Shown here: in pieces, positions 183-60,677 of the stretch
Position numbering within the stretch: position 1 is the first letter of the stretch
How the letters are laid out: each line of letters opens with the position of its first letter
UHGV virus genome: UHGV-0021337
Strand: one strand, 5' to 3'
Length of the DNA stretch: 64,000 bases
Source: a virus
The notes under the pieces: model-generated
What the model saw: only the letters and a program-made list of their open reading frames with translations
Database searches by the model: none
Told to the model about the DNA's origin: nothing
Made by a program: the position numbers and the translations under genes

Positions 183-256
183 GCGGAATTAGTGTAGTGG
201 TAACACAAGTGCCTTCCAAGCATTTATCACCAGTTCAAATCTGGTATTCCGCTCCA
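183..256 (+). tRNA. tRNA-Gly (anticodon TCC)
   Basis: Acceptor gcggaat pairs with attccgc. Anticodon stem agtgc/gcatt with loop cTTCCaa. T-loop cagttcaaatctgg. Encoded CCA. Confidence 0.7.
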
Positions 257-258
257 AT

Positions 259-341
259 CGGAGTATGGTGAAATTGGCAGACACGCCAGACTTAGGATCT
301 GGTGCGAAAGCGTAAGAGTTCGAGTCTCTTTATTCCGACCA
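259..341 (+). tRNA. tRNA-Leu (anticodon TAG), type II with long variable arm
   Basis: Acceptor cggagta/tattccg (one G-U pair). D-arm gtgaaattggcagacac. Anticodon stem ccaga/tctgg with loop cTTAGga. Variable arm gtgcgaaagcgt. T-arm aagag-ttcgagt-ctctt. A73 then CCA. Confidence 0.7.
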
Positions 342-604
342 CTGGGTTATTTGAGGTTGGGTTTCCCACGAAGTAGCTAATACAGCGCCTAGGTAAGTTG
401 TATTAGTTGCGTATTTGTTCTGACAAGAGTAATCTTGAAAGGTAACAAAATCTTAAACCTCCAGCCGTTGTTTTACGTTACTAGCCCGCCCCCAACGATA
501 AACGCAGGTGAACTAGACCGAGATGTTTGCTTATGTACAAAAGCGACATCTCGATAATGAGTCTTACTGACGTACTTAGTTTAAGTTTGATTCTTAAAAG
601 ACTC

Positions 605-633
605 TTGATTGTTTTGTATATTTATCATATAAT
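605..633 (+). promoter_or_regulatory. sigma70-type promoter TTGATT-17-TATAAT; the ATG at 640 sits about 7 nt after the -10, so the transcript is possibly leaderless
   Basis: ttgatt at 605-610, 17-nt spacer, tataat at 628-633. No RBS before the ATG at 640. Confidence 0.45.
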
Positions 634-639
634 GTAAGT

Positions 640-951
640 ATGAAGATAATTAGTATAACAATTGATAACAAGATATCACTAATTGAAATCTCGGAAATGA
701 AACACGAATTTCCGTATGCAAGAAGAATCCCTAACCAGAGCGAATATTACTACATATTTGATGACGGTGACGCTTTAGGCGAAGGAACTCCAGTAAATAA
801 TCTTTGTAGTAATCTTGCAAAAGATGAAGTTCTAGGTGATGCATATGTTGTTAAGTCAAACATTGATATAACAGGACTTGCATTTGAATCTGATTGTGTT
901 CCGTGTACGGATGTTGATTTAGCCATAGTAACTAAAATGTGTCTGGTGTAG
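640..951 (+). CDS. hypothetical protein
   Basis: ORF immediately downstream of the consensus promoter. Stop overlaps the next start (TAGTATG). Confidence 0.5.
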   Translation: MKIISITIDNKISLIEISEMKHEFPYARRIPNQSEYYYIFDDGDALGEGTPVNNLCSNLAKDEVLGDAYVVKSNIDITGLAFESDCVPCTDVDLAIVTKMCLV

Positions 952-952
952 T

Positions 953-1405
953 ATGAAAACGATAAGAGAATATTTTGAAGAATTGAATAAATTAGAAGAG
1001 ACTACATTTAGACCTTCATTGATAGGCAAACATTACAATAAGCACGTTGCAAAAGATTTAAAACAATACTTGTTAGATGAAACAGACGAATTATTTGACC
1101 CTATATCAGAAGAAGAATATGACTACGATGGAGATACTTTGTCAAAGATGACTGTTAACACTTCGGAGTATGATAGTGAAGACGATGTAATCGGTTTTGT
1201 CGGGCTAAATAATTTCAATGAAGAAAACGTGTATAAATTTCGTAAGTCAGAAAGCGATTTAGTTATATACAGAGCAGATAAAGATGCTGCGTATACTATA
1301 ACATATTTCAAAGCTTCAGGTGATGGCAGATCCAGATATGAACGATTGAAGAATAAGCACTACCTTCGTGAAATAAAACCTGAAGATGATTTTTATAACA
1401 GGTAA
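953..1405 (+). CDS. hypothetical acidic protein
   Basis: 150-aa ORF coupled to the upstream gene. Confidence 0.5.
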   Translation: MKTIREYFEELNKLEETTFRPSLIGKHYNKHVAKDLKQYLLDETDELFDPISEEEYDYDGDTLSKMTVNTSEYDSEDDVIGFVGLNNFNEENVYKFRKSESDLVIYRADKDAAYTITYFKASGDGRSRYERLKNKHYLREIKPEDDFYNR

Positions 1406-1411
1406 AAGTAT

Positions 1412-1440
1412 TTGATTTATTCTTTGATATATATTATAAT
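1412..1440 (+). promoter_or_regulatory. sigma70-type promoter TTGATT-17-TATAAT
   Basis: ttgatt at 1412-1417, 17-nt spacer, tataat at 1435-1440, then RBS agggag and the ATG at 1475. Confidence 0.45.
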
Positions 1441-1474
1441 GTATGTATAAAATAAATATTAGGGAGTAACAAAT

Positions 1475-1612
1475 ATGAAATTATATGCAACGAAGGAAGA
1501 ACTTTACGACACTTGTATGAAAAGCGAAGCTGGTATAACAGTTATTGCAGTTGCCGTTTATAGCGAGAACAGTGGTGAGTTTTTGGGCTACCGTAAAGAA
1601 TACTTGGAATAA
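1475..1612 (+). CDS. small hypothetical protein (45 aa)
   Basis: Promoter, RBS agggag 8 nt upstream, ATG, 45 codons, TAA. Not in the ORF track because it is under 60 aa. Confidence 0.3.
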   Translation: MKLYATKEELYDTCMKSEAGITVIAVAVYSENSGEFLGYRKEYLE

Positions 1613-1898
1613 CTTAAAGCCAACTGTCTTCGGCAAATCTAAATTCGTTGTAAGTTAGCTACAGAAAATCTTAAAGCTGTAAAATTTAATAATAGGTGCT
1701 ACGAAGCAACAAGGAGAAGCAAAACGTTTGAACCGTTAGTAAGCTTGCCTGAGAGTAGTAGAAGCTGTAGTAAATGGAATTTGATAAACAGCCTATTAAA
1801 TAATAAATAGTGGTGCTGATTACCAGACGCAGTTGGGCGTAAAGGGTAGACTCAAAAGGTCAGTTAAATGGTCTAGACGACAGCCACTATCATATTTC

Positions 1899-1949
1899 CC
1901 CAATCGTATTACTGGTTGTAATTAGGGTTCGATTCCCTCGGTTGGGCAG
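1899..1949 (+). ncRNA. tRNA-like minihelix: 8-bp acceptor-like stem plus a T-arm, with no D-arm or anticodon arm
   Basis: cccaatcg pairs with cggttggg. Between them lie tattactggttgtaatt and the T-arm aggg-ttcgatt-ccct. Confidence 0.3.
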
Positions 1950-1987
1950 AAAGTACGCGATGAACTTTCTGAATTATCGCACAAAAT

Positions 1988-2021
1988 CCTTATTTATAGT
2001 GACATCTTATTTATAGTGACA
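1988..2021. repeat. perfect tandem direct repeat, 2 x 17 bp (cttatttatagtgacat)
   Basis: Read directly: tccTTATTTATAGTGACATcTTATTTATAGTGACATtacg. Confidence 0.6.
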
Positions 2022-2331
2022 TTACGATTTAAGGCGGCGCGACATCGAAGTTGCGAGGGTTGAAGGACAAATCCCTAATAATAACCAAAATTTACGGGGT
2101 ATTCCCGTTACGGAAAGATCTGACCTACAAAAGGTTGGACTGAAACTCGCTTGTTTTACACAAGAGAGAACTCCTATTACAATATGGGTTACGGACGAAA
2201 AGAGGGGAAATCAATTCGTCAACTAACTTAGTAATAGGTTAGAAAATTAAAACCAGAATAACCCGAATGGTTTGGATCCTCTAGGCACGTGAGGTTTTAC
2301 CTGAAGTACAAAGGTGTAGGGTTATTTATAT

Positions 2332-2382
2332 GCTTCACAGTGTGTACGGCACGAAAGGACAGTTCGATTCTGTCGTGAAGCA
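2332..2382 (+). ncRNA. second tRNA-like minihelix: acceptor stem gcttcac/gtgaagc plus T-arm gacag-ttcgatt-ctgtc
   Basis: 7-bp acceptor pairing flanks an 18-nt segment and a canonical T-loop GTTCGATTC. No D-arm or anticodon arm. Confidence 0.3.
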
Positions 2383-2560
2383 AGTAGGGTGTTTATTATT
2401 TCAGGCCCTAAGTTATCCGTCAGAGATAAGCCATAAATGGAGAAACCGAAATAATCGATGTATTGAGTTGGCTTAGGTCGTAATAATTGAGAGCCGACAG
2501 TTGGGCACTTGCTTAAAATGTGTTATTCGCGAATGACGCCTCGGAAAGACGAGGATGCAT

Positions 2561-2635
2561 GGGGAACGTAGTGTAAAGGTAACACGGCAGTTTGTGGCAC
2601 TGCAATTTAAAGTTCGATTCTTTACTTTCCCACCA
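2561..2635 (+). tRNA. tRNA-His (anticodon GTG) with an extra 5' G(-1)
   Basis: Four G residues precede the acceptor, consistent with the His G-1 hallmark. Anticodon stem gcagt/actgc with loop ttGTGgc. T-arm taaag-ttcgatt-cttta. Acceptor 3' strand ctttccc, then A, then CCA. A hairpin cctcg-gaaaga-cgagg lies 6 nt upstream. Confidence 0.65.
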
Positions 2636-2801
2636 CTTGTCATTAGGTATTTAGTAGTTTTCCCAAGAGACAAGCAAATCAAACTACTCGGTAGGCCTCG
2701 CCGTTATCACGCCGCTGCAAGCATACTAGGAAAAGGAATGTGCTTCGGAGTTTCTTGTTTCTTCGTCAACGTGAAATTGCAAATCGCAAACAAGAATTTA
2801 T

Positions 2802-2886
2802 TGCCGAGTGGCGAAATTGGTAGACGCACCAGATTTTGATTCTGGCAACGAAAGTTATAGGGGTTCAAGTCCCTTCTCGGTAGCCA
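2802..2886 (+). tRNA. tRNA-Gln (anticodon TTG) with an unusually long variable region
   Basis: U1:A72 weak first pair and a G73 discriminator, which are E. coli Gln identity elements. The anticodon arm ccaga-ttTTGat-tctgg is near-identical to E. coli tRNA-Gln. A 13-nt variable region precedes the T-arm agggg-ttcaagt-ccctt. Confidence 0.55.
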
Positions 2887-2987
2887 ATGGTTGGAAGTTG
2901 AAAACATACCTTAAACTTCCTGATGTTATTAGGCTAAAAGCTAATACGGTGCGATTTTTGCTCGTCTTGCTCCGTTAAGGCAGACAT

Positions 2988-3081
2988 GGAAGTTTACTCA
3001 ATGTTGGCAAAGAGGACAGTTTGCTAAACTGTTAGGTCTTCGTAAGGGGGCGAGTAGGGTCGGCACCTACAACTTCCGCCA
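2988..3081 (+). tRNA. tRNA-Ser (anticodon GCT), type II
   Basis: Acceptor ggaagtt/aacttcc, then G73 and CCA. Anticodon stem acagt/actgt with loop ttGCTaa. Long variable arm. Atypical T-loop gtcggca in the T-arm gtagg/cctac. Confidence 0.5.
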
Positions 3082-3149
3082 TAAAGAATACAAAATAAAT
3101 TTCTAAGTTTTATAACAAAATTATTGTATATAACTTATATAAGAAATAT

Positions 3150-3225
3150 GCTGGTGTAGCTCAATTGGCAGAGCAGCTGATTTGTAATCAGCAGGTTGCG
3201 GGTTCGATTCCAGTCACCAGCTCCA
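3150..3225 (+). tRNA. tRNA-Thr (anticodon TGT)
   Basis: Acceptor gctggtg/caccagc. D-stem gctc/gagc. Anticodon stem gctga/tcagc with loop ttTGTaa. T-loop gggttcgattcc with one stem mismatch. CCA. Confidence 0.65.
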
Positions 3226-3323
3226 CAGGTTTTATTTTATAACATTTGTTGCACCAATGTAAAAAGCAATAAAGTTGTGTAGTACTTGCGCAATATGGAC
3301 AACTTGATAAATGTTATTTTTAT

Positions 3324-3400
3324 GGCCCCTTAGCGTAATTGGTTATCGTGTCTGACTGTCTATCAGAAGATTGCAGGTTCGAGTCCTGTAGGGGCCGCCA
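3324..3400 (+). tRNA. tRNA-Asp (anticodon GTC)
   Basis: Acceptor ggcccct/aggggcc, then G73 and CCA. Anticodon stem tctga/tcaga with loop cuGTCua, as in E. coli tRNA-Asp cuGUCac. T-arm caggttcgagtcctg. Confidence 0.6.
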
Positions 3401-3539
3401 AAAAGCAGCTGTTGTTCTTTTATTAAGAGGCAGAACAACTATTTCTTGCCTGAATGACAAGACAACAATGTTATTTCGTATCGAGTAATGTTGTTTGAGT
3501 TATTTAACGAGTAGGGATACGGAAACGCTCGTATTGTAT

Positions 3540-3614
3540 CGCAGAGTAGAGAAACGGCATCTCACTTGGCTCATAACCAAGGGACAATTGGTTCGACTCC
3601 AATCTTTGCAACCA
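3540..3614 (+). tRNA. tRNA-Met (anticodon CAT) with initiator-like features
   Basis: C1/A72 mismatch at the top of the acceptor stem and an A11:U24 pair in the D-stem gaga/tctc, both initiator hallmarks. Anticodon stem cttgg/ccaag with loop cuCATaa. T-arm attgg-ttcgact-ccaat. CCA. Confidence 0.6.
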
Positions 3615-6829: not shown

Positions 6830-7825
6830 ATGAAAGAATTTAAAATGTTTTGCGGACTTAGCGGGGCAGGCAAATCAAGCTATATACAAGACTTTGTACA
6901 CAAGCTAAGAGCCGAATGTTACAATGTTGAAGTGTTATCTTCAGACGCGCTACGAAAAGAAGTTTACGGAGATGTGAATGACCAAACGCACAATAAAGAA
7001 GTGTTTGACATCATCCACACAAAGATTAGACAGTGGGCAACAAGAGAATACAATAAGCGTGATATCTTAATTGTTGATGCTACAAATCTTACACGAAAGA
7101 ACCGAATGGCTATGCTCAACATTGTAAAACAATCGAAAGACGTTTCCGATATACATTGTAGTGTAGTGGTTATAGCTACTCCTGTTGAAAAGTGTATCGC
7201 AAATGATGCAATGAGAGAGCGAACAGTTGGTAGAGATGTTATCCTTAAGCAGCTATGTAAGTTTTCTGTACCACAAAGATTTGAAGGTTGGGACGAAATC
7301 GACTTTGTCCGTGACCAAGGAGTTGACTTCAAACATTCTTACGACATAATGGAAAGAATGATAGGGGTTGACCAAAATAATCCGCACCATAAATACACGC
7401 TATTCGAGCACTGTATGAAAGCAAGATACATTGCAGAAGCAATAACGCGGTGCAGAGAGGTTGCAGTAGCTGCTCAATATCACGACATAGGTAAGCTTTT
7501 TACTAAAACAACCGATGAAAACGGTGTGTCACACTACTATAATCACGCTAATGTGTCAGCATACTACATGATGGTAAACAGCGATTTGTTGAAAGAAACT
7601 TCTGCTTACTACATTGACGTAATGCGAGTGCTATTCTTAATCGAAAACCATATGATAATTAGAGACATCGACAAACATTGCTCAAAAAAGTATCGCAAAA
7701 TATGGGGTGACACTCTGTACGACGAAGTATTGTACTTTAGCAAGATTGATGAGGAAGCATCAAGTGTTAGCAGAGAAGAACACATTGAATTAGACAACAG
7801 GAAGAAAGAGAATGAAAATAACTAA
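6830..7825 (+). CDS. P-loop polynucleotide-kinase-like domain fused to an HD-superfamily phosphohydrolase; putative RNA/tRNA end-healing enzyme
   Basis: Walker A GLSGAGKSS and a kinase-like DATNLTRKNR segment in the N-terminal half. The C-terminal half has H..HH and the HD signature (HHKYTLFEH...QYHDIGK). Confidence 0.55.
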   Translation: MKEFKMFCGLSGAGKSSYIQDFVHKLRAECYNVEVLSSDALRKEVYGDVNDQTHNKEVFDIIHTKIRQWATREYNKRDILIVDATNLTRKNRMAMLNIVKQSKDVSDIHCSVVVIATPVEKCIANDAMRERTVGRDVILKQLCKFSVPQRFEGWDEIDFVRDQGVDFKHSYDIMERMIGVDQNNPHHKYTLFEHCMKARYIAEAITRCREVAVAAQYHDIGKLFTKTTDENGVSHYYNHANVSAYYMMVNSDLLKETSAYYIDVMRVLFLIENHMIIRDIDKHCSKKYRKIWGDTLYDEVLYFSKIDEEASSVSREEHIELDNRKKENENN

Positions 7826-9315: not shown

Positions 9316-11118
9316 ATGAGTTATTCAAGAGAGTTTTTAATAAAGCAATTTAAGAAAGGCGTTAAAGATTATTTGCCCATAGCAAGCGCAGCTGAGGCAA
9401 TGATTAACTACAAATTAAGTCAGTTGGATGAAGATGACTGGGCAAGAATAGAAGAATTCTTTAACTCGTTTAAGTTTCCACTTCACGTATACAGAGGCTT
9501 AAATGTTAAGTCAGAAAAAGACGTTGACTTCAAGAACCCTGGTAATAACTGGACAGTAGACACCGCTTTATTTCACGCTCCGTTATCTGCATTTAGAAAT
9601 AGCAATTACATACTCGAAGGCTACATTGATGAAGACCAAATAGATTGGCCTGAAACAGTACAAAACTTTATGTATTACTCAGTTAATGCAGCACGTAATC
9701 AACGTTACCCTGAAAATGAAGTCACACTCAAGAAAAGACAAGTACCTCACGACTTAACAGGGGCAATGAAAGAGTCTTTAACTGAAGATGTTGATGTTCC
9801 CGATAAACCATCTGCACAAGACAAGTTTAGATATTACTGGGAACTTGAATCAAGAGCTATTAAACAACCACAAGACTTGTTACGTAAATTCAAAAATAAG
9901 TTTCCTAATCAGTATGATATCTGGGGTGAGACATTTGAGTGGATGCTTGAGCATAATGAAGATAGTTTTGTAGAGCCTGAAAATTATGCTCTTTATCTTG
10001 AATACGATTTAGATACTAATTGGGGCTATATAGCAATTGTGGAGTTCAAAGGTCGTTATCAAGAATCACTCAATGAAGTTTATCCACAAAAGAATGAAAC
10101 TAAATCTGATTTTATTAACAGGTTTATGCGAGTAACAGCAAAAGAATATCCTGATGTAAAACAAAGATATGCTGTTGCTAATAGTTACTGGGACAATCGT
10201 GATAGGAAGAGATTAAACGAAGAAATAGATGATAAAGCTGTTGCACTTATATTTGGTAGTCTTGATTATTCTGAATTAAGAGGCAAAGTAATATTCACAC
10301 AAAAAGAAGATGTTGTTGATGTTGATGTAAATCTTGTTAATCTTCCGCAATCACAATTCTTAGGGTTTCATATTCATTCTGGTTCTGAATGTACAGGAAA
10401 TGAAAAAGATCCTTTCAAGAATGCTAAAACTCATTTCAATCCTTCTCGTAAGTCACATCCAGAACACGCTGGAGACTTGCCTGCTTTGTATAGTTCGAAC
10501 GGACAAATACATACAACTTTTGAAACTGATAAATTTACAATTGCTGATATAATTGGTAAAACTATCATCATACATTCCGACAGAGATGACTTTACTTCGC
10601 AACCTGCTGGCGATGCAGGGGACAAGATTGCTTGTGGTGTTATAAAGAAGTATACTTTAGAGGAAGCTTACCTAGATGCCGAAGAAAAGTTTTGGGATTA
10701 TAGAACAAAAGAAGTAGAACCAGGACAATACATTGATACAACTCGTAATGAAATTAGATGGGTTGACGATATGTTAGAAGATCCTGCTTACTATGAAAAG
10801 AAAGGTTATACTGCACGCATAGTTGAAATGTCTCCTGAAGAATACTTCGAACAGTGTGCTGAGTTGTTTGGTAACTCTATAGAAGCTCAAAAAAGACAGA
10901 TTGCTGCAGATACTGGCGTGTTAGATGACTTAACTCAAGTAATTAAAAAGTATCATAAAAGATTTCCGATACCATTTATAAACATAAAAGATAGAACTCA
11001 AGAAGGCAGGCATAGAATGTATGTACTTGGAGAGTTATTTGGATGGGACAAAAAAGTTCCTGTGCTTATAATTCAAGATGTAAATAATGTTCGTGTTACT
11101 GGCAAGGAGATAAAATGA
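9316..11118 (+). CDS. multidomain protein with a complete Cu/Zn superoxide dismutase (SodC) domain at about aa 340-440; the C-terminus has a ParB/sulfiredoxin-like EGRHR motif
   Basis: All Cu/Zn ligands are present: HIH, THFNP, HPEHAGDL (His, His, Asp), IIIHSDRDD and GDAGDKIACGVI. The disulfide cysteines are in SECTGN and IACGV. Confidence 0.7.
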   Translation: MSYSREFLIKQFKKGVKDYLPIASAAEAMINYKLSQLDEDDWARIEEFFNSFKFPLHVYRGLNVKSEKDVDFKNPGNNWTVDTALFHAPLSAFRNSNYILEGYIDEDQIDWPETVQNFMYYSVNAARNQRYPENEVTLKKRQVPHDLTGAMKESLTEDVDVPDKPSAQDKFRYYWELESRAIKQPQDLLRKFKNKFPNQYDIWGETFEWMLEHNEDSFVEPENYALYLEYDLDTNWGYIAIVEFKGRYQESLNEVYPQKNETKSDFINRFMRVTAKEYPDVKQRYAVANSYWDNRDRKRLNEEIDDKAVALIFGSLDYSELRGKVIFTQKEDVVDVDVNLVNLPQSQFLGFHIHSGSECTGNEKDPFKNAKTHFNPSRKSHPEHAGDLPALYSSNGQIHTTFETDKFTIADIIGKTIIIHSDRDDFTSQPAGDAGDKIACGVIKKYTLEEAYLDAEEKFWDYRTKEVEPGQYIDTTRNEIRWVDDMLEDPAYYEKKGYTARIVEMSPEEYFEQCAELFGNSIEAQKRQIAADTGVLDDLTQVIKKYHKRFPIPFINIKDRTQEGRHRMYVLGELFGWDKKVPVLIIQDVNNVRVTGKEIK

Positions 11119-14882: not shown

Positions 14883-15308
14883 GTGGAAAATTATAAAAGA
14901 TTAACAAACAACAACCGCGATGAATATGACCCCGAATACGATTTCTGTTGCGATTGTAAATACTTTGGTGAGCCTTGTGGTTGTAATAGACCAAATGGTA
15001 CTTGTGGTAATTATGACAGTTTTCTTGAAATATATAATCGCCTCACAAAGTTGGAAGATAAAATCGAAAATGGCACACTCGTTGAGTCGTCTTGCTGCAA
15101 TAAAAATATAAAATTTTATTTTAATAGAAAAGAAATTCCTTTTGAGGAATTAAGCGAGATTCCCCAAATGACAACTGATCGAGAAAATCATACGATTACA
15201 AATATAGTGTTGAATTATATGGATAAAGACGCAATATTCTTTTATACTAAAACAGAGCATTATACTGTGGCAGATGGGGCGGAAGAAGAGTATTATGACG
15301 AAATGTAA
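14883..15308 (+). CDS. Cys-rich protein; paralog of 42812..43183
   Basis: GTG start with RBS gagg. Shares NYKRLT and YNRLxxLEDKIExGTLVES. Extra CCDC...CGC...C cluster. Confidence 0.45.
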   Translation: MENYKRLTNNNRDEYDPEYDFCCDCKYFGEPCGCNRPNGTCGNYDSFLEIYNRLTKLEDKIENGTLVESSCCNKNIKFYFNRKEIPFEELSEIPQMTTDRENHTITNIVLNYMDKDAIFFYTKTEHYTVADGAEEEYYDEM

Positions 15309-15588
15309 ATATTATTCTGATTATGATTCTGACCCGCATGATTCTGGTGTATGTCATTATGATGAATATAAGTATGGTGGCTTTCCTATGATATGTACTC
15401 ACAAGGACGATGAGGATAACTGCACTTGCTTCGAACCAGTTAAAGGTCAAGGATTAGTTTTCTCTCCTTGTGAAAAAATTATTTTTATTCAAACTAAAGT
15501 TGGAGATTCTGTAGAATTAGACCCTAAGAAATTATCTGAGCTTGATTGGATAAATATAAATGGGATTAAATTTAAGAAGGCAAAATGA
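15295..15588 (+). CDS. small Cys/His-rich protein
   Basis: ORF. Start moved to an internal ATG to avoid a 35-nt overlap. Confidence 0.4.
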   Translation: MTKCKYYSDYDSDPHDSGVCHYDEYKYGGFPMICTHKDDEDNCTCFEPVKGQGLVFSPCEKIIFIQTKVGDSVELDPKKLSELDWININGIKFKKAK

Positions 15589-15896
15589 ATTGTATATATT
15601 ATTCTGAAGCGGCACGTGCTTGTATATTTGACGGCCCTTTAGATGAATGTCCGTATGAAGATGATTTCTGTAAGTGTGACTGTTTTAGACCTGGTGCACG
15701 AATTGAACGTGGAAGTAATGACGTGTACGAAGACAAAATGAAAACAACTCTAGAAAGTCAAAGAATCAAGCTTCCGAAATATACAGCAAAGATTACAATA
15801 GGTAATTGGACAATTAACTTGCTGGATAAAACCTTTACTAAAGAGCAGATCAAAAATACGAAAGAATTGTTAGGTTGGGATGTTGAGAACTTATAA
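15585..15896 (+). CDS. small Cys-rich protein
   Basis: ATGA overlap with the upstream gene. CxxC...CxC motifs. Confidence 0.45.
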   Translation: MNCIYYSEAARACIFDGPLDECPYEDDFCKCDCFRPGARIERGSNDVYEDKMKTTLESQRIKLPKYTAKITIGNWTINLLDKTFTKEQIKNTKELLGWDVENL

Positions 15897-15952
15897 AGGA
15901 CAATGTTAAATCAGCACTAAATTTACTTGAGTTATTGTAAATGAGAGAAAGT

Positions 15953-16108
15953 ATGAAATTAGAAAAGATTACACCTAATAAACAAAATAAAGATAGGGAC
16001 TATACTTTGCGAGAAGACGTTGCTAAAGAGATTGAAGACGCTATGAATGAGCCATGCCAAGAATTTAGTGACTTGGCTGAATTGTTCATATATCTGGGGC
16101 TAAGATGA
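15953..16108 (+). CDS. small protein (51 aa) overlapping the toxin-domain gene start by 4 nt; candidate antitoxin-like partner
   Basis: RBS gagagaaag. TGA overlaps the ATG at 16105. Confidence 0.4.
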   Translation: MKLEKITPNKQNKDRDYTLREDVAKEIEDAMNEPCQEFSDLAELFIYLGLR

Positions 16109-17079
16109 AATATACTGTATTACCACAAAAGCCGTTCAAGAAAGCGTTAGATAAGTTGATTGCAAATGGACTTAGCAAACAAGCTCAAGATAGAATAGAA
16201 ATTGCAATTGAACTACTTTCCAACGGTCAGCAACTTCCTCCTTATTACTGCGACCACGCACTTAAAGGTAAGAAGTTCAAAGGTGTAAGAGATTGTCACA
16301 TACAGGGTGACTTAGTTTTAATCTATAAGTACGAACACAAGAAACTACATCTGTTGTTATTAAAGATAGGAAGTCATAATCAAGTGTTCAATGAGTCACT
16401 TGAAACACATAAAGAACTCAATCCGAAACTGTTTGAAAATAACAAGCTAAAACAAGATGTAAGAAAAGCTCTGCTCGACATTGTTGTCACTTTTGTAAAA
16501 GATTTAGAAGAGAATGAAGTACCTTTACACGTTGTTGATGTTTGGTTAATCGGCAGTAACGCTTCTTTTAACTACACCGATAAGAGTGATATAGATTTAC
16601 ATATAATAACAAATAGTTCTGAACTATCCTGTGACCCGGCATTACTTAAAGTAGTTTATAACTATGCTAAAGCAGCGTTTAATCGTAATCACGACATAAC
16701 TATCAAAAATTTACCAGTCGAAGTATATATTCAAGATTGCGAAAGTACTGTTAATAGTAATGGTATTTATAGTGTAATCGACGATTGCTGGGTAAAAGAG
16801 CCTAAGCCTATAACAATTACCTATCCTGATCCGAAAAACCTTGCACAACTGGAGCAACTAGTTGCAACATATAAAGCACTAGACAGAAATGATTTAGATG
16901 CTGTAACTAACCTAATCGACTTAGCTTACAAGATAAGAAAAGAAGGTCAACTCGAGGGCGAATTTAGTGACGGCAATTTATCATTCAAAGAATTTAGAAA
17001 TCTTGGATACTTAGACGACCTAAAAGAATTGAGACTAGAATTAGAGTCAAAAGAGTTAACTTTAGAAAAGTTAAAGTAA
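16105..17079 (+). CDS. fusion of an N-terminal YafQ/RelE-family mRNA-interferase domain and a C-terminal minimal nucleotidyltransferase domain
   Basis: Residues 45-95 are YYCDHALKGKKFKGVRDCHIQGDLVLIYKY...LLLLKIGSHNQVF. They align with the E. coli YafQ catalytic region (DHPLQGSWKGYRDAHVEPDWILIYKL...GTHAALF). The C-terminal half carries the NTase signature LIGSNASFNYTDKSDIDLHII (G[GS]x9-13DxD). Confidence 0.65.
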   Translation: MKYTVLPQKPFKKALDKLIANGLSKQAQDRIEIAIELLSNGQQLPPYYCDHALKGKKFKGVRDCHIQGDLVLIYKYEHKKLHLLLLKIGSHNQVFNESLETHKELNPKLFENNKLKQDVRKALLDIVVTFVKDLEENEVPLHVVDVWLIGSNASFNYTDKSDIDLHIITNSSELSCDPALLKVVYNYAKAAFNRNHDITIKNLPVEVYIQDCESTVNSNGIYSVIDDCWVKEPKPITITYPDPKNLAQLEQLVATYKALDRNDLDAVTNLIDLAYKIRKEGQLEGEFSDGNLSFKEFRNLGYLDDLKELRLELESKELTLEKLK

Positions 17080-17140
17080 CATTTGATTGATTCTACAAAA
17101 TTATTTATAATATAAGTATATAATAAGACGAGGTAGTTTA

Positions 17141-17929
17141 ATGTACTACGAACTTAAATTTAGCTATGATGTAGACACTGTTTATACGCCGGAAGGGGAA
17201 AGTGTCGAAATTACGCGTGAAGATAAACAAGAATGTATTGATGATTTTGTGCATTATTTGACAGAACGTATTAAAGATTTTGAGTTAAATGACACAGACT
17301 TCGATGACGACAATCTATATATAAGATTCTTTTCTGACACAGCTCTAGATGACATAAATATTGACAAAGTAGTATTTGGTACATCTAATAATTATGTAGC
17401 AAGTACAACTAAAGAAATTGAATATGGTGAAGCTCACGACTACAGTTATTATGAAGAGCCTTACTATGACACTAAAGAAGTAGATGTTGAAATGGACATT
17501 TACAATGCCGAATTAACTATTGCGGAAGAATATGACACAGAAAAAGTAGTTGAAGAAAACATAAAAGATGACTGCGGAGATGTAGAAAAAGGAATCGAAG
17601 TTTTCAATACTGCAATGGGAGAGGACATAAATACTGGCACGATAAATGAAGCTGGTTATTGGTCAGGTAGACCTGTTAAATACAAAGTTTACTACAACAT
17701 ACATAATAATCAAGTTCTTGAGGGTGGCAGTAATGATTTAAGAGAAGCCGAACAGTTTGCAAAAGATTGTATCGATAGACTTGCTTCTAATCCTTGGGAA
17801 GATAAACACGATAAAATTGATGCTATCGACAGTGTTATGATATATGACCATTTACAGGAAGAAGATGTTACAACAACTAACATTGAAAAATATGCTGATA
17901 TAGCAGTCAGAGAATTACTAGCAAAATAA
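17141..17929 (+). CDS. hypothetical acidic protein
   Basis: RBS cgaggtag. Confidence 0.5.
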   Translation: MYYELKFSYDVDTVYTPEGESVEITREDKQECIDDFVHYLTERIKDFELNDTDFDDDNLYIRFFSDTALDDINIDKVVFGTSNNYVASTTKEIEYGEAHDYSYYEEPYYDTKEVDVEMDIYNAELTIAEEYDTEKVVEENIKDDCGDVEKGIEVFNTAMGEDINTGTINEAGYWSGRPVKYKVYYNIHNNQVLEGGSNDLREAEQFAKDCIDRLASNPWEDKHDKIDAIDSVMIYDHLQEEDVTTTNIEKYADIAVRELLAK

Positions 17930-45759: not shown

Positions 45760-47688
45760 ATGAATATTGAACTTAAACTTAACACTGATTTTGAACGTTG
45801 CCTTGACGAACTTAGAAATAAGTACGGCGAAGATTTTGAAAAGATAAATGGTCTTCATCCGAGCCAGCAAGATAGTACCGAATTTTTAGCTATGTTTACA
45901 AATAATGATACGTTAGCTGATACAACTGTTGACCCGAATGCTAATGCTAATCACAGAGACATACATTCTTTTATAACAGAAAAAGGAAAGAGTCAAGATA
46001 AGTTATTTGGATTGAATAAGATATTTATTGAGATAAAGAAGAAGTGGGGTCTTAGAACCGCAAAACAATGGTTTGAAGCTGAATTTAGTAAAGCACTTTA
46101 TTTGAATGACGCTGCTAGCTGTAGTTATATTCCATACTGCTGGGCAAACGACTTAACGCGACTTGCAAAAGAAGGACTATTCTTTTTAACTAACTACAAT
46201 AATCAAGGTCCTAAACATCTTACAACATTTCTGGACGATATTATTGAGTTTGTGTCTTTTCTATCAAATAGGCAAAGTGGAGCTGTAGGACTACCTAACT
46301 TAATTGTTTGGTCATATTATTTCTGGAAAAAGGATTGCGAAACTGGTTACTATATAAAAGATAAAGATTACTATCTTAGACAGTGTTTTCAGAAGCTTAT
46401 ATATAGACTTAATCAGCCTTTCTTGAGACTTGACCAAACTGCGTTCACAAATGTCTCTATATTTGACAGACCTTACATCGAAGCATTATTTGGAGGAGTC
46501 GAATTTCCTGACGGGTCATTTGTTATTGATGAAGTAGAGGAAATAATTGCGTGTGAAAAAGTGTTCATGGAAGTTGTAAGTGAAATAAGAGCCGAATCTA
46601 TGTTTACTTTCCCTGTAATAACTGATAGTTTGCTTGTAGATAAAGATAAACATTTTGTTGACCAGGAATTTGCTAGATGGTGCTCTGACCACAATGTTAA
46701 GTGGCAGGATGCTAACTTCTTTATTAGTGAAGATGTTGGAACACTTAGTAATTGTTGTCGACTTTTAAGTTCAACTAAAAAATTGTCTGGATTCCAGAAT
46801 AGTATTGGTGGTAGTGCATTAAGTATAGGGTCATGTAGAGTTTCAACTATAAATCTTGCTCGTATAGCTTATGAATCCAAACTAAATAAGAAAAAGTATT
46901 TGCAAATTCTTGCCGACCGTGTTACACTAGATTGTAAAGCTCTTTATTCAATGCGCCACATATTAAAACGAAACATAGAAAAAGGTTTGTTGCCTAACTA
47001 TCAAGAAGGAGCTCTTGAATTAGATAAGCAGTATTGCACTGTTGGTATTTTAGGATTATACGAAGTTATGGATATGTTTGGTCTTATCAACACAGACGAA
47101 TTTGGAAATAAGTCCTACACAGACGAAGCGGTTGAATTTGCAAAAGACATATTCAAAACTATAAACGACATCAAAGATAATTTTACGGACGAATTTTCTT
47201 TCAACGTTGAGCAGATACCCGGAGAAAATACTTGTGGAGTTCTTGCAACTGCAGACAATTTATTGTATGAACAAAACAAATACTACATATACGCAAACCA
47301 GTGGCTCCCGTTGCGTGAAAAATGTACACTGCAAGAAAAATGCAGACTTAGTTCTATTTTTGACAATCTTTGTTCAGGTGGAGCAATTGCTCATATAAAC
47401 ATTGAGGGCAGATTCCCAACTAAAGACACTGCTTGGGATATGCTTAATTATATAGCGCAACAAGGAGTTATTTATTCTGCATTCAACACAAAAATAAATG
47501 TATGCAAACATAAACATGCTTTCATAGGTAGTAATACCTGTCCTAGATGCGGTGAGCCGGTTGCAGACAGGTTCACGAGAGTAGTTGGGTTCTATGTTCC
47601 GGTAACAAATTTCCAGAAGATTCGGAAAAAAGAATTCGACGAAAGAAAATGGTACAATGTGCTAAATAGCAAAGATATTATAAATTAA
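45760..47688 (+). CDS. nrdD: anaerobic ribonucleoside-triphosphate reductase
   Basis: 642 aa. C-terminal Zn-ribbon CPRCGEPV and glycyl-radical-type motif TRVVGFY at the C-terminus. Confidence 0.75.
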   Translation: MNIELKLNTDFERCLDELRNKYGEDFEKINGLHPSQQDSTEFLAMFTNNDTLADTTVDPNANANHRDIHSFITEKGKSQDKLFGLNKIFIEIKKKWGLRTAKQWFEAEFSKALYLNDAASCSYIPYCWANDLTRLAKEGLFFLTNYNNQGPKHLTTFLDDIIEFVSFLSNRQSGAVGLPNLIVWSYYFWKKDCETGYYIKDKDYYLRQCFQKLIYRLNQPFLRLDQTAFTNVSIFDRPYIEALFGGVEFPDGSFVIDEVEEIIACEKVFMEVVSEIRAESMFTFPVITDSLLVDKDKHFVDQEFARWCSDHNVKWQDANFFISEDVGTLSNCCRLLSSTKKLSGFQNSIGGSALSIGSCRVSTINLARIAYESKLNKKKYLQILADRVTLDCKALYSMRHILKRNIEKGLLPNYQEGALELDKQYCTVGILGLYEVMDMFGLINTDEFGNKSYTDEAVEFAKDIFKTINDIKDNFTDEFSFNVEQIPGENTCGVLATADNLLYEQNKYYIYANQWLPLREKCTLQEKCRLSSIFDNLCSGGAIAHINIEGRFPTKDTAWDMLNYIAQQGVIYSAFNTKINVCKHKHAFIGSNTCPRCGEPVADRFTRVVGFYVPVTNFQKIRKKEFDERKWYNVLNSKDIIN

Positions 47689-49762: not shown

Positions 49763-50061
49763 GTAGTATGACTGATTTAGAACACGACTTAGCCATGAGC
49801 GTTGAATGGGAGAATACTAAATTTGGAGTTGATACTGCTGCCACTGCAGAAAATCTATCTAAAATGGGTTATCAGAAGATTGTTTGGCATGATGTAAGAA
49901 AAGAATTGCCACATAGGTTGATACCAGTTTTAGGTTATAATGCGGCTTACCAAGATTTTGTAGTTGTTTCTTGGGATGGTATAGATTGGGTTGACACTGA
50001 AGAAATTTGTTATAATATAGATTATTGGACTGAATTGCCAAATATCGAAACGGAGAGGTAA
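49747..50061 (+). CDS. hypothetical protein
   Basis: ORF. Confidence 0.4.
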   Translation: MDGLVSSMTDLEHDLAMSVEWENTKFGVDTAATAENLSKMGYQKIVWHDVRKELPHRLIPVLGYNAAYQDFVVVSWDGIDWVDTEEICYNIDYWTELPNIETER

Positions 50062-50792
50062 TGAATTTATATAATGGTGATTGCTTAGAAATAATGCAAT
50101 CTATAAAAGATAATTCAATAGATCTTATTCTATGTGATCTCCCATACGGTTGTACGTCTTGTGCATGGGATGTAATTATACCTTTTGATAAATTATGGGA
50201 ACAATATAAAAGAATTATCAAACCCAACGGGAATATAGTTTTGTTTTCTTCTGGTTTATTTACCTATAAGTTGATAGAAAGCAATTTAAAAGACTTTAAA
50301 TACAAACTCATCTGGAAGAAAAATGTCCCTACAGGTATGAGTTCAGCTAAATATAGACCTATGAAATATTATGAAGAAATTTGTATATTCAATTTTGGTA
50401 GATCATCAACTTATAATCCTATTATGAAAGATAGGGTTGGAGTAGGTAAAGATTGTTATAATTACGACCACTACTGCAATCCAAATAATCATATCAATAT
50501 GAATAAAGTTAAGAAAAGATATGATCCGGATAAAGTTCAACCTAGTGATGTTCTTGAGTTTAATGTGGTTCCAAATAGAAATGGAAAACTTCATCCAACA
50601 CAGAAACCTGTAGAGTTAGTAGAATATTTGATAAAGACTTATTCAAATGATGGTGATGTGGTTCTTGATAATTGTATGGGAAGTGGTAGCACGGGAGTTG
50701 CTTGCATAAATACTAATAGGGATTTTATTGGTATTGAATTGGATAAAAAATATTTTGATATAGCTAAGGAGAGGCTGAATTATGACAGCTAA
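50061..50792 (+). CDS. DNA methyltransferase, beta-class (N6-adenine or N4-cytosine)
   Basis: Motif IV DLPYG (LCDLPYGCT) is N-terminal to motif I VLDNCMGSGSTGVA. This is the beta-class order. Confidence 0.75.
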   Translation: MNLYNGDCLEIMQSIKDNSIDLILCDLPYGCTSCAWDVIIPFDKLWEQYKRIIKPNGNIVLFSSGLFTYKLIESNLKDFKYKLIWKKNVPTGMSSAKYRPMKYYEEICIFNFGRSSTYNPIMKDRVGVGKDCYNYDHYCNPNNHINMNKVKKRYDPDKVQPSDVLEFNVVPNRNGKLHPTQKPVELVEYLIKTYSNDGDVVLDNCMGSGSTGVACINTNRDFIGIELDKKYFDIAKERLNYDS

Positions 50793-58634: not shown

Positions 58635-60677
58635 GTGGCAAGTAATTTTATTGACTTTCAATTTGGATTCAAAGTTCTTGCATCTAACGCTCTAGACTAT
58701 CGTTATGTTGGAGAAACAAAAGAGTTTCTAAACGAATTGATTGATTTAGATGCGGCATATGAAGGTCTTAGAGTATTCATAAAAGACGAAAACGAATACT
58801 ACGCTTACATAAAAAATGCTGATGGTGTTTATCAATTCGTTCTTGATAAAGGACCAGTTGGTCCTACAGGCCCGACAGGTCCTCAAGGCATTCAAGGACC
58901 AACTGGTCCTCAAGGTATCCAAGGCGAACAAGGTCCTGTAGGTTTACAAGGACCTCAAGGACCTAAAGGCGAGCAAGGAGAAAAAGGTCTAATCGGGCCC
59001 AGAGGTCTGCAAGGACCTGCCGGAGATACAGGTCCTAAAGGTGAACAAGGCAGTGTAGGTCCACAAGGACCTCAAGGCGTGGCTGGTAATAACGGTAGAG
59101 ACGGTGTAACCGGACCTAGAGGTTTACAGGGCGACACAGGACCGCAAGGTCCACAAGGAGATACAGGCCCACAAGGACCTCAAGGTCCAAGAGGTGAACG
59201 AGGACTTCAAGGTATTCAGGGTGAGACTGGTAAAGAAGGTCCTGAAGGCCCACAAGGCATTCAAGGCGCTACAGGACCAAAAGGTGCAGATGGTAAAGAT
59301 GGTACAAGCATAAATGTACAAGCTACAAAAGCACAATGCACAAAATCTGGGGACGGATATATAGCCGACGGAACTGACGCTCGACCTGGAATTGTGGGAC
59401 ATCTATACATATTTGTAACAGACACTGAATTCACAGATGCTGGTCAGATTCAAGGTCCTAAAGGCGATACTGGGGCTACTGGTGAACAAGGACCGAGAGG
59501 ACTTCAAGGCGAGCAAGGTGCGTACATAACAAAAATAGAAACAGGAGATGTTCAAACTTCTGCAGATTATACACTTACTCCTGTTACTGTTTCGTATAGT
59601 AATAATCTGCAAGATAACTTTACAATAAGCGCAGCGAATGGGGTTGACGGAATAAGAGGTGCAACAGGCGCGACCGGTGCAACACTTATTCCTCAAGTTA
59701 ATGAAACTACTACTCTATCTCCTGGAGAGGCTGCTACGGTGTCTGTTGATACTATAACAAATCCTTCAAAAGCTATGTTTACGTTTGGCATACCCAAAGG
59801 AGATACAGGACCGCAAGGTCCACAAGGTATTCAAGGACCTAAGGGAGATCAAGGTATTCAAGGAGATACAGGCCCTAAAGGAGACACTGGAAACCCTGCG
59901 TACAATCTGTCATTTCCTGTGTTTAAAGGAAGAGCAGACTCAGTACATGGAATTTATGCCTCAAGTCAACTTCCACAAGTCACTGCAACGGCAAATGCTC
60001 CAAAAGGTGACTTAACACCCGAAGGAAAACAGAACGTATACTTAACGTATGAGTTCGAGAATATAATTGGTAATGGTGTAGAGAAAGTTACTGAGTCCGC
60101 AAACCCTGACGATTTGCTTGGTACAGACTACACGCTTAAATTTTTCGGACCGCTAGATATCAACTCTGAGGATGATCCAAACTACCACGAAGAAATTTTT
60201 GATGACCCTAGTAAGAAGAATATCTATACATACACCCTTCATGTTCGAAACGGTGCAAGTTTGAAAAAAATAACTCCTACAAACTTAATTAACTTTCCTA
60301 CTGACTCTTATGCGTATGTTGTAAACAATACAGTATTAACAGGAGCTACAGAAGAGGGAACTACAGGACCGTCGTTTAATTCTCCTTTAATTGTTTTGAC
60401 CGATGATGTAGGTAAATCATCTATTGCTCTTGATACAACAGGCACAACAAAATCATTAAGCTTTAATTACAATACTGAAAAGTTTAACACAGAAACAGGA
60501 AGGTTGCCCGTAAGTGCAAAAATCACGCTACCTGCTGTTTATGCTACTTCTGGAACAAGCTCTTTAACAGTTCCTGTCGACATAACAGCTAAAAATCAGT
60601 TCTACATACGTAATATGCTAGGTAACTTCCAAAAAATCGATATGAGTCTTGATGACGGCATTCTTGAACTCGACTAA
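58635..60677 (+). CDS. collagen-like tail fibre protein
   Basis: GTG start with RBS aaggag. More than 60 G-X-Y triplets ([19 protein letters not shown]...). A second G-X-Y block lies at aa ~395-415. Confidence 0.7.

Follow-up and report, generated by a model that had tools for sequence, protein, structure and literature searches.

A YafQ-type ribonuclease domain joined to a Pol-beta-superfamily nucleotidyltransferase, with a putative antitoxin-like partner peptide, in the virus genome UHGV-0021337

A gene on the plus strand of virus genome UHGV-0021337 (16105..17079 in a stretch of 64,000 nucleotides (nt), hereafter the window) encodes a protein of 324 amino acids (aa), with an ATG start, in which a YafQ-type endoribonuclease (RNase) domain is joined in frame to a Pol-beta-type nucleotidyltransferase (NTase). 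On the same strand it is preceded by an open reading frame (ORF) of 51 aa (15953..16108; hereafter the small ORF), whose product is a putative antitoxin-like partner peptide. In textbook cases, RelE/YafQ toxins are single-domain RNases borne on chromosomes or plasmids; the window is a large phage region with nearly all of its genes on one strand. An earlier interpretation made from the letters alone (hereafter the sequence-only reading) had described two ORFs overlapping by ATGA, and both are present, the stop of the small ORF and the ATG of the fusion gene sharing four bases at 16105-16108. The two-domain architecture with its overlapping upstream ORF is confirmed as real. Both domains belong to known superfamilies, and we found no prior description of their joining.

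The YafQ/RelE (BECR-fold) domain comprises residues 1-95 (16105..16389, plus strand) and is identified by family profiles, matches in the PDB and the mapping of single residues. The sequence-only reading had aligned residues 45-95 with the catalytic core of YafQ; a profile search proves this N-terminal likeness significant and lengthens it, as Pfam family PF15738 (YafQ_toxin) matches residues 3-96 over its whole profile (1-88 of 88; E=5.6e-21, 75.1 bits against a cutoff of 30). The NCBIfam model RelE_StbE (TIGR02385) is also exceeded (60.4 against a cutoff of 27.9), the stricter YafQ subfamily model TIGR00053 stays under its cutoff (62.2 versus 87.25), and PHROG 7251, 'RelE-like toxin', matches the same domain with E=3.7e-18. 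Searching PDB sequences with the N-terminal domain matched five solved YafQ-family structures, including HP0894 and HP0892 of H. pylori (E=5e-13 to 1e-10) and E. coli YafQ (about 2e-6), in alignments that extend to the C-terminal GSHxxxF motif. In a multiple alignment, all five catalytic positions of E. coli YafQ (H50, H63, D67, H87 and F91; reference sequence identical to PDB 4ml2 residues 4-95) are kept, as H51, H65, D69, H91 and F95 of the fusion protein, and D61 is kept as D63. In YafQ, His50 and His63 serve as general base and His87 as general acid, together with Asp67 and with Phe91 for stacking (Maehigashi et al., PMC4652777); cleavage leaves a 3'-phosphate, and RelE-family toxins bind the 30S A site (PMC4652777). 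Judged by sequence, the match to YafQ is far beyond chance, and the profile evidence is decisive by itself.

Structure prediction was less informative for this half of the protein. In the full-length AlphaFold model the mean confidence (predicted local distance difference test, pLDDT) over the N-terminal domain is about 50, because only three sequences covering that domain were left once a joint MAFFT alignment of fusion and standalone YafQ proteins, which had placed the short toxins inside the NTase domain, was dropped. The secondary structure predicted in this low-confidence model, two helices followed by three strands, is compatible with a RelE/BECR fold, which the sequence matches to the five solved structures also favour. 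Of the two folds that the sequence-only reading had expected, a Pol-beta NTase fold was obtained for the C-terminal domain, and a RelE/barnase-like fold for residues 1-100 is unconfirmed at that confidence. Of the 150 best YafQ homologues listed, the majority have 63-125 aa, and about ten are longer (145-336 aa), further fusions among them.

The remainder of the protein, residues 98-324 (16396..17076, plus strand), is a Pol-beta-superfamily NTase domain with a C-terminal helical lobe, as indicated by profile, AlphaFold and Foldseek results. Residues 98-320 match phrog_36119, a family of unannotated function, with E=5e-40. The signature G[GS]x9-13DxD, previously read in the C-terminal ~225 aa, is found as LIGSNASFNYTDKSDIDLHII at residues 148-168, with G150-S151-x10-D162-x-D164 (16552..16596, plus strand) carrying the metal-binding carboxylates in a region matched by the Polbeta, NTP_transf_2 and MTPAP families. 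The Pfam matches, all over GS..DxD, lie just under threshold (NTP_transf_2, PF01909, 20.2-20.8 bits versus 21; Polbeta, 21-21.8 versus 26.9). Of 33 family members, 28 show the same sub-threshold Pol-beta matches, and for one member, P0093, the score exceeds the PF01909 cutoff (25.2 versus 21). Across 40 family sequences G150, S151, D162 and D164 are invariant; E206 is likewise invariant (alignment A4) and D211 nearly so. These last two residues lie in a VEVYIQD strand (16720..16737, plus strand) which, from its position in the NTase fold, is a candidate source of the third carboxylate. Modeled alone, the C-terminal domain reaches a pLDDT of 90.6 and a predicted template modelling score (pTM) of 0.76, a confident model, and the top 50 Foldseek matches of this model in the PDB are all Pol-beta NTases, as are those of the full-length model. 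They include CdnE/CdnD, ANT(9), ANT(6), AadA, LinB, CutA, KNTase, MNT antitoxins, the CCA-adding enzyme and TUT7, and the individual matches are weak (E ~1e-3 to 1e-2, template modelling score (TM) 0.2-0.3, 11-20% identity); a search of PDB sequences with the family profile matched no solved structure. Because family hits recur, the carboxylates are invariant and only NTases are matched structurally, the assignment, resting on sequence and model, is solid at the superfamily level and points to a distinct, uncharacterised family.

Placement in a named NTase family was considered and, at the level of sequence, rejected in three cases. None of 33 members matches the RlaP family (PF10127), and hhalign against T4 NrdC.11 gave a probability of 0.25% over the 18-residue GS..DxD motif only. 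The MntA equivalog NF047752 scores 14.5 bits against a cutoff of 60, and neither the fusion protein nor its neighbours match a HEPN toxin in Pfam or PHROG. There is no sequence-level relation to CD-NTases, a CBASS or resistance context is absent, and PADLOC returns only weak matches to candidate minimal-NTase models. In the loci examined no RNA ligase was called next to the NTase gene, a finding made without a systematic census.

The two domains are almost contiguous. The junction comprises residues 96-104 (NESLETHKE; 16390..16416, plus strand), homology with standalone relatives restarts at ~16390-16399, and in the alignments the effective linker is at most 9 residues, up to the family-invariant LNPKLF motif of the NTase domain. 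The sole possible internal start at the junction, a GTG at V94, reads GTA in the related locus L010; because no internal start is conserved there, the NTase is produced only as a fusion. A Shine-Dalgarno-like GGGG element (16096..16099, plus strand, by reading of the sequence) lies within the 3' end of the small ORF, 5 nt 5' of the ATG at 16105, and together with the ATGA overlap is consistent with the usual layout for translational coupling.

A 95%-identical homologue of the fusion protein (P0001) occurs on two independent contigs from different samples, L010 (ENA) and L011 (Logan), each with an upstream ORF of 49 aa in the same arrangement. The fusion gene differs from that of L010 at 97 nucleotides, mostly synonymously, and the ratio of nonsynonymous to synonymous substitution rates (dN/dS) is 0.044 for the whole gene; taken separately, the YafQ part gives 0.031 (dS 1.12) and the NTase part 0.05 (dS 0.41). 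Both domains are under strong purifying selection, and the fused frame is real. That two genes only seem to be joined, through faulty assembly, a frameshift error or recent decay into a pseudogene, is scarcely credible: the sequence is metagenome-derived and its closest relatives are unfused, yet the architecture is identical in L010 and L011 and alike in two further divergent lineages, so that an artefact is effectively refuted.

The small ORF is acidic (isoelectric point (pI) 4.6), as opposed to the basic YafQ domain (pI 9.5). An alternative start at 15941 would give 55 aa; because that position is not ATG in L010, 15953 is taken as the conserved start. Compared with L010/L011, 38 of 51 residues are identical (~75% at the protein level versus 95% for the fusion), with a ratio of nonsynonymous to synonymous differences per site (pN/pS) of 0.17 and synonymous sites saturated; a faster-changing small ORF beside a conserved toxin gene would be the usual antitoxin-toxin pattern. 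An upstream, overlapping or closely spaced antitoxin-like ORF is also found in L010/L011 and in L012. From position, overlap, charge, selection and recurrence, and not from homology, we infer an antitoxin role for the small ORF. The antitoxin-toxin arrangement proposed in the sequence-only reading stood as regards position, overlap, size and charge and did not gain a homology to DinJ/RelB or any other family. The C-terminal tail DLAELFIYLGLR resembles DADDLFDKLGI of DinJ by eye, and the likeness was significant in no test, so that homology of the small ORF to DinJ/RelB was rejected.

Outside this lineage the NTase is normally a standalone phage gene, and the YafQ block is a rare, recurrent in-frame addition. 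A tblastn search of cultured phages found the C-terminal domain in 45 records, always without the N-terminal part; hosts of the standalone gene include T4-like cyanophages, Lak megaphages, Caulobacter phage Cr30 and Maribacter phage Molly. A large protein database holds 280 relatives, of which the nearest after P0001 are 238-242 aa long, 82-89% identical in the C-terminal domain and without YafQ. The family numbers at least 581 loci in the viral contig collection, 41 loci were found in genome bins (mostly of animal-gut Firmicutes), and no match to the YafQ hidden Markov model (HMM) occurred within 2.5 kb of the NTase-family gene in any of 121 sampled loci. Extensions of other kinds are seen as well: about 28% of 76 family members (L026-L105, IMG/VR) carry C-terminal extensions of more than 100 aa and up to 565 aa, and three IMG/VR members have N-terminal extensions of 373-748 aa. 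In Cr30 (L021 2779-4727) the standalone gene lies between tRNA-Pro and tRNA-Met, a context not seen in S-CRM01 or Molly.

Further fusions came to light in an exhaustive HMMER scan that used the N-terminal domain (1297 matches) and in a word-indexed search (8 matches). The gene for P0088 (513 aa) neighbours those for portal and prohead protease on a T4-like contig and has an acidic 53-aa ORF upstream that overlaps its start by 1 nt, and P0179 (336 aa) is found on 18 contigs next to a T4 gp13-like gene. In P0231 and P0253 the YafQ domain is followed by a remnant of the same NTase, most of which has been lost. Between the three fusion lineages the NTase domains are 40-48% identical, compared with 89%, 56% and 51%, respectively, to the nearest unfused relative of each; the YafQ domains are 26-41% identical between lineages, and that of the window is nearest to a standalone protein, P0129 (47%). 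Since unfused or standalone relatives are closer than other fusions, the fusions are polyphyletic in both domains, and their presence in at least three lineages means either that the domains were joined several times independently or that they were joined long ago and the fusion was then lost many times. Some catalytic positions have changed in other lineages (D to G in P0179, H to Q in P0253, replacement of the terminal Phe).

A partner peptide accompanies the YafQ domain in each lineage whose locus was examined (those of the window, P0088, P0179 and P0253). A 101-aa partner lies upstream of P0253. The P0179 loci have no small ORF; a 755-aa protein ends 5 nt upstream, closing with ...NGYTKEEEEAILKAAEGPF..., and this tail matches the C-terminus of the 101-aa partner of P0253 with a score of 107 versus 38.5 +/- 5.8 for shuffles (z=11.8). 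The 755-aa protein (L013 2728-4995) has no Pfam match, and with its last ~30 residues partner-like it looks like an antitoxin-like peptide joined to a large unrelated protein. The YafQ domain also has other partners: Pfam places an N-terminal YafQ domain before Gp49 (HigB-like) in P0145 and P0218, giving two BECR-fold toxin domains in one chain, and P0228 combines an N-terminal YafQ domain with a low-complexity, coiled-coil tail.

Alignment with the closest standalone relatives delimits an in-frame block missing from them (15925..16398, plus strand). Homology to the standalone loci holds to ~15924 (the end of the upstream 103-aa gene plus intergenic sequence) and restarts at ~16390. Relative to the P0002 loci, ~465 nt in the window replace ~55 nt, with the left edge at ~15925; relative to the P0003 locus, ~400 nt are extra, in frame, with the left edge at ~15982, and the right edge of the block lies at ~16390-16399. 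On the left, homology with P0003 takes in the ribosome-binding site and runs on into the small ORF for its first 6-10 codons (MKLEKI...), and P0003 begins with the same codons. This fits insertion of the block just past the start of a P0003-like gene, the small ORF having borrowed that gene's start; it also fits an alternative in which P0003 arose by in-frame deletion from the fusion between two AAGAT(T/A) (Lys-Ile) sites, the junction alignments against P0003 being about equally good, so that insertion and deletion fit alike. Over 15850-17929, DNA identity to L010 (1710-3780) rises from 70-72% in the intergenic sequence and small ORF to 85% in the YafQ part and 92% in the NTase part and downstream gene. 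Because divergence from L010 is greater in the cassette than on either side of it (p=3e-11; proportion of synonymous differences (pS) 0.58-0.79 versus 0.32), the cassette has a partly separate history, and the gradient suggests recombination or a different cassette age.

Comparison with known systems brings out what is shared and what is distinctive. The E. coli pair DinJ-YafQ and the H. pylori pairs HP0895-HP0894 and HP0893-HP0892 involve the same toxin family, PF15738, with the same catalytic residues, and likewise have the antitoxin gene before the toxin gene, overlapping genes, an acidic partner and a basic toxin. Their toxins are monodomain proteins of ~90 aa, whereas in the 324-aa fusion an NTase of 229 aa follows right after the catalytic Phe; they reside on chromosomes or plasmids, whereas the present module lies in a lytic-type large phage and has a 51-aa partner without a ribbon-helix-helix (RHH) or helix-turn-helix (HTH) domain and without detected homology to DinJ/RelB. 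The multidomain RelE/ParE toxins surveyed by Gerdes (2025, PMC11980606) also have a RelE domain built into a larger protein and a small partner gene alongside, in architectures that include fused toxin-antitoxin proteins, RelE-YiaG, YefM-YoeB, BrnTA, PtuXYZ and membrane ToxM; nucleotidyltransferases are not mentioned in its text or in the supplements consulted. Within that limit, the view of the sequence-only reading that a RelE-fold RNase joined to an NTase is not a standard toxin-antitoxin architecture is borne out, and a literature search and the polyvalent-protein and jumbo-phage surveys contained no earlier description of a YafQ-NTase fusion.

The analogues of function and of layout lie elsewhere. 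A functional analogy is offered by T4 RegB, an RNase of the BECR/RelE fold from a large lytic phage, which cuts early mRNAs and inactivates them at the ribosome or close to it (PMC5512222); it differs in being standalone, without an antitoxin-like partner or NTase, and is likened here by function, with no sequence relationship claimed. HepT-MntA and the fused MNT-HEPN systems (PMC13000451) also combine an RNase toxin and a minimal Pol-beta NTase, sometimes in one chain. Their RNase is a HEPN protein, whereas that of the window is RelE-fold and is joined to a larger, two-lobed and normally standalone NTase that the MntA model does not match. RlaP (PF10127; T4 NrdC.11), an RNA-repair NTase of large phages, shares the layout of an NTase core, a helical lobe and a closing C-terminal helix and occurs in the same kind of genomes. 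RlaP adds 1-2 nucleoside monophosphates (NMP) to RNA 3'-OH ends (PMC12776372) and may, by analogy, be a model for the activity of the C-terminal domain; it differs in its association with RNA ligase or RtcB operons, no adjacent ligase being present in the loci examined here, and in its family, as PF10127 is not matched. The best structural matches to the two-lobed domain are CdnE/CdnD, ANT(9), ANT(6), AadA, LinB and KNTase, at 11-16% identity. Polyvalent proteins, as described by Iyer et al. (2017), are large multi-domain conflict proteins, usually virion-associated (MuF/portal) and often with a peptidase, and are not matched by the present protein, which has two domains, no peptidase or MuF domain in Pfam, and a gene placed among small non-structural genes.

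The reading tentatively preferred here, with somewhat less than even confidence, is that the module encodes an antitoxin-gated bifunctional RNA enzyme that couples mRNA cleavage to RNA-end nucleotidyl transfer and is used by the phage for mRNA inactivation. The peptide would bind and mask the YafQ domain, as the C-terminal half of DinJ does on YafQ; once unmasked, the YafQ domain would enter the ribosomal A site, cut mRNA and leave a 3'-phosphate. The tethered NTase would then act at that ribosome, or close to it, on the 3' end of an RNA, perhaps after healing of the end by the kinase and HD enzyme encoded at 6830-7825, and the net effect would be a phage-timed inactivation of host or early mRNAs resembling that by T4 RegB. 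RNA-3'-end NTases such as RlaP and the CCA-adding enzyme are common in large phages (PMC7824862, PMC12776372). The reading draws on the intact catalytic positions of YafQ, the invariant NTase signature, the selection on the fused frame and the recurring partner peptides, and the return of so rare a fusion in at least three lineages, polyphyletic in both domains, hints that the two enzymes cooperate on RNA. In this scheme we infer the ribosome dependence of cleavage, the RNA substrate of the NTase and the biological role. A bolder form of the same idea, regarded as unlikely, is that the repeated joining of YafQ to this one NTase family reflects a two-step 'cut-and-tail' or cut-and-modify enzyme docked at the ribosome, in which cleavage of A-site mRNA would be physically tied to nucleotidyl transfer onto an RNA end and which would be gated by a minimal antitoxin peptide, either free-standing or appended to another protein. 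The gene at 6830-7825 encodes a 331-aa protein with a P-loop kinase domain (AAA_33/KTI12; PHROG 'polynucleotide kinase') and an HD domain, which could be an RNA end-healing enzyme turning YafQ 3'-phosphate ends into substrates for the NTase; the gene is also present in L001/L002, relatives without the YafQ block.

Several observations weigh against the gated bifunctional enzyme. On the side of the NTase, some of the best structural matches are to enzymes with targets other than RNA ends (e.g., CD-NTases, aminoglycoside and lincosamide NTases, MntA), the 3'-phosphate left by YafQ is not directly extendable by an NTase, and an NTase of 229 residues beginning only ~9 residues past F95 might hinder entry into the A site. 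Coupling is not obligatory, because standalone NTases are the rule (0 of 121 with YafQ) and because YafQ forms exist in which most of the NTase is lost (P0231, P0253), and the neighbourhoods of the standalone gene in Cr30, S-CRM01 and Molly show no consistent context, including RNA repair. On the side of the peptide, the small ORF has no Pfam or NCBIfam match at E up to 10, its pairwise shuffle test against DinJ is not significant (z=1.2), a profile of seven partner tails gives DinJ a probability of 0.15% and finds nothing relevant in the PDB, no significant likeness exists to the partners of the nearest standalone YafQ proteins, and a search of a database of 5.8 billion clusters returns the small ORF alone. 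It also lacks an RHH or HTH DNA-binding domain, 51 aa being too short for an RHH domain plus a toxin-binding region.

Somewhat unlikely, and still a serious contender, is the explanation that the block is a mobile toxin-antitoxin cassette of a selfish or hitch-hiking kind, with only the toxin-binding part of its antitoxin left, which recombined into the permissive 5' end of an NTase gene and has no joint function with it. Such a cassette would be retained because loss of its antitoxin, or of the frame, does harm, or through a benefit in phage-phage or phage-host competition, and the NTase would work as in its standalone relatives. The clean in-frame insertion or deletion relative to 82-89%-identical relatives agrees with this origin, as do the divergence of the cassette beyond that of its flanks (70-85% versus 92% DNA identity to L010), the occurrence of both domains alone and of YafQ with NTase remnants, the fusion of YafQ to unrelated partners (Gp49 or a coiled coil), and the rarity of the fusion (0 of 121) in an NTase family that tolerates many other extensions. 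However, chance insertion would not be expected to strike one and the same NTase family, each time at its N-terminus, in three or more polyphyletic lineages; the linker is almost nil, the fused frame is under strong purifying selection, and no intermediate with YafQ and NTase as adjacent separate genes appears in the 121 loci.

Two further explanations assign one domain a role in the service of the other. In a Type VII-like self-regulation, which appears improbable, the NTase would AMPylate the attached YafQ domain or the peptide and keep the RNase off, as MntA does to HepT. MNT antitoxins and the HepT-MntA complex are indeed among the structural matches to the NTase core (target TM 0.43-0.47), a weak NCBIfam match to MntA lies over the NTase motif, and fused MNT-HEPN systems under oligoAMPylation control have been described (PMC13000451); however, the MntA equivalog score (14.5) is far from its cutoff (60), the overwhelmingly standalone family has no toxin nearby and hence did not originally serve as an antitoxin, the module has a partner peptide of its own, and neither a HEPN domain nor an Rx4-6H motif is seen (alignment A3). 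Very improbable is the converse, in which the YafQ domain is a non-catalytic docking module that brings the NTase to the A site to modify tRNA, mRNA or rRNA. The binding of RelE-family toxins to the 30S A site (PMC4652777), a short linker that puts the NTase by the mRNA-binding face, and the loss of some catalytic positions in other fusion lineages (P0179, P0253) would suit docking; yet a harmless docking domain would need no partner peptide, and the protein of the window keeps the five catalytic positions and D63, with an omega (dN/dS) of 0.03 over the YafQ domain. The sequence-only reading had suggested that the protein could be a self-modifying toxin, an anti-defence effector or a modifying enzyme brought to the ribosome by its RelE fold; because all catalytic residues are kept under purifying selection, a pure ribosome-targeting role is disfavoured.

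The surroundings of the module offer further observations. Three consecutive small Cys-rich ORFs of 141, 104 and 103 aa (14883-15896), without Pfam or PHROG matches, directly precede it, and the 103-aa gene is intact in L009 and a mere remnant in L008 and L010. The sequence-only reading had placed the module in an early block after Cys-rich proteins: these three ORFs do precede it, and the promoter and terminator scan, which was overall at chance level in the region, gave no informative signal. Early expression of the module is plausible, and the host-takeover role put forward in the sequence-only reading is conjectural. A sigma-70-like promoter match (10/12, by consensus match only; 17083..17111, plus strand) directly 3' of the fusion gene is the likely 3' limit of its transcription unit, and the conserved intergenic word CTAAATTTA shows no enrichment in the window. 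Just downstream, a 262-aa gene (17141-17929) ends in a strong terminator, and its product shares GD..KGI..FNT..MGE with the C-terminal extensions of P0088 (~340-370) and P0093 (BLASTP E=0.002, in one comparison), which might amount to a weak Rosetta-stone connection of the NTase with the gene that follows it.

Farther away, eight tRNA genes (Gly, Leu, His, Gln, Ser, Thr, Asp and Met) lie at 183-3614, and a 600-aa protein at 9316-11118 carries a Cu/Zn superoxide dismutase domain in its second half (PF00080, E=1e-29), an unusual size for a phage SodC. The window also encodes NrdD (45760-47688; best cultured match Clostridium phage c-st, 40%), an N6/N4 DNA methylase (50061-50792) and a collagen-repeat protein (58635-60677). 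These three genes and the matches in gut Firmicutes bins point to a gut anaerobe as host; a megablast of the region against cultured phages gave no matches.

The presence of a composite toxin-NTase in at least three lineages suggests that phages use toxin domains in RNA-processing enzymes, and not only in addiction modules. For an abundant and uncharacterised NTase family, the fusion points to ribosome-associated RNA as the substrate class, and an antitoxin-like peptide cut to about 50 residues bears on the minimal size of a functional antitoxin. All the parts are small, look soluble and should be easy to express. Cut-and-tail activity, if true, would represent a new class of bifunctional toxin and provide the first functional handle on an orphan family of phage NTases.

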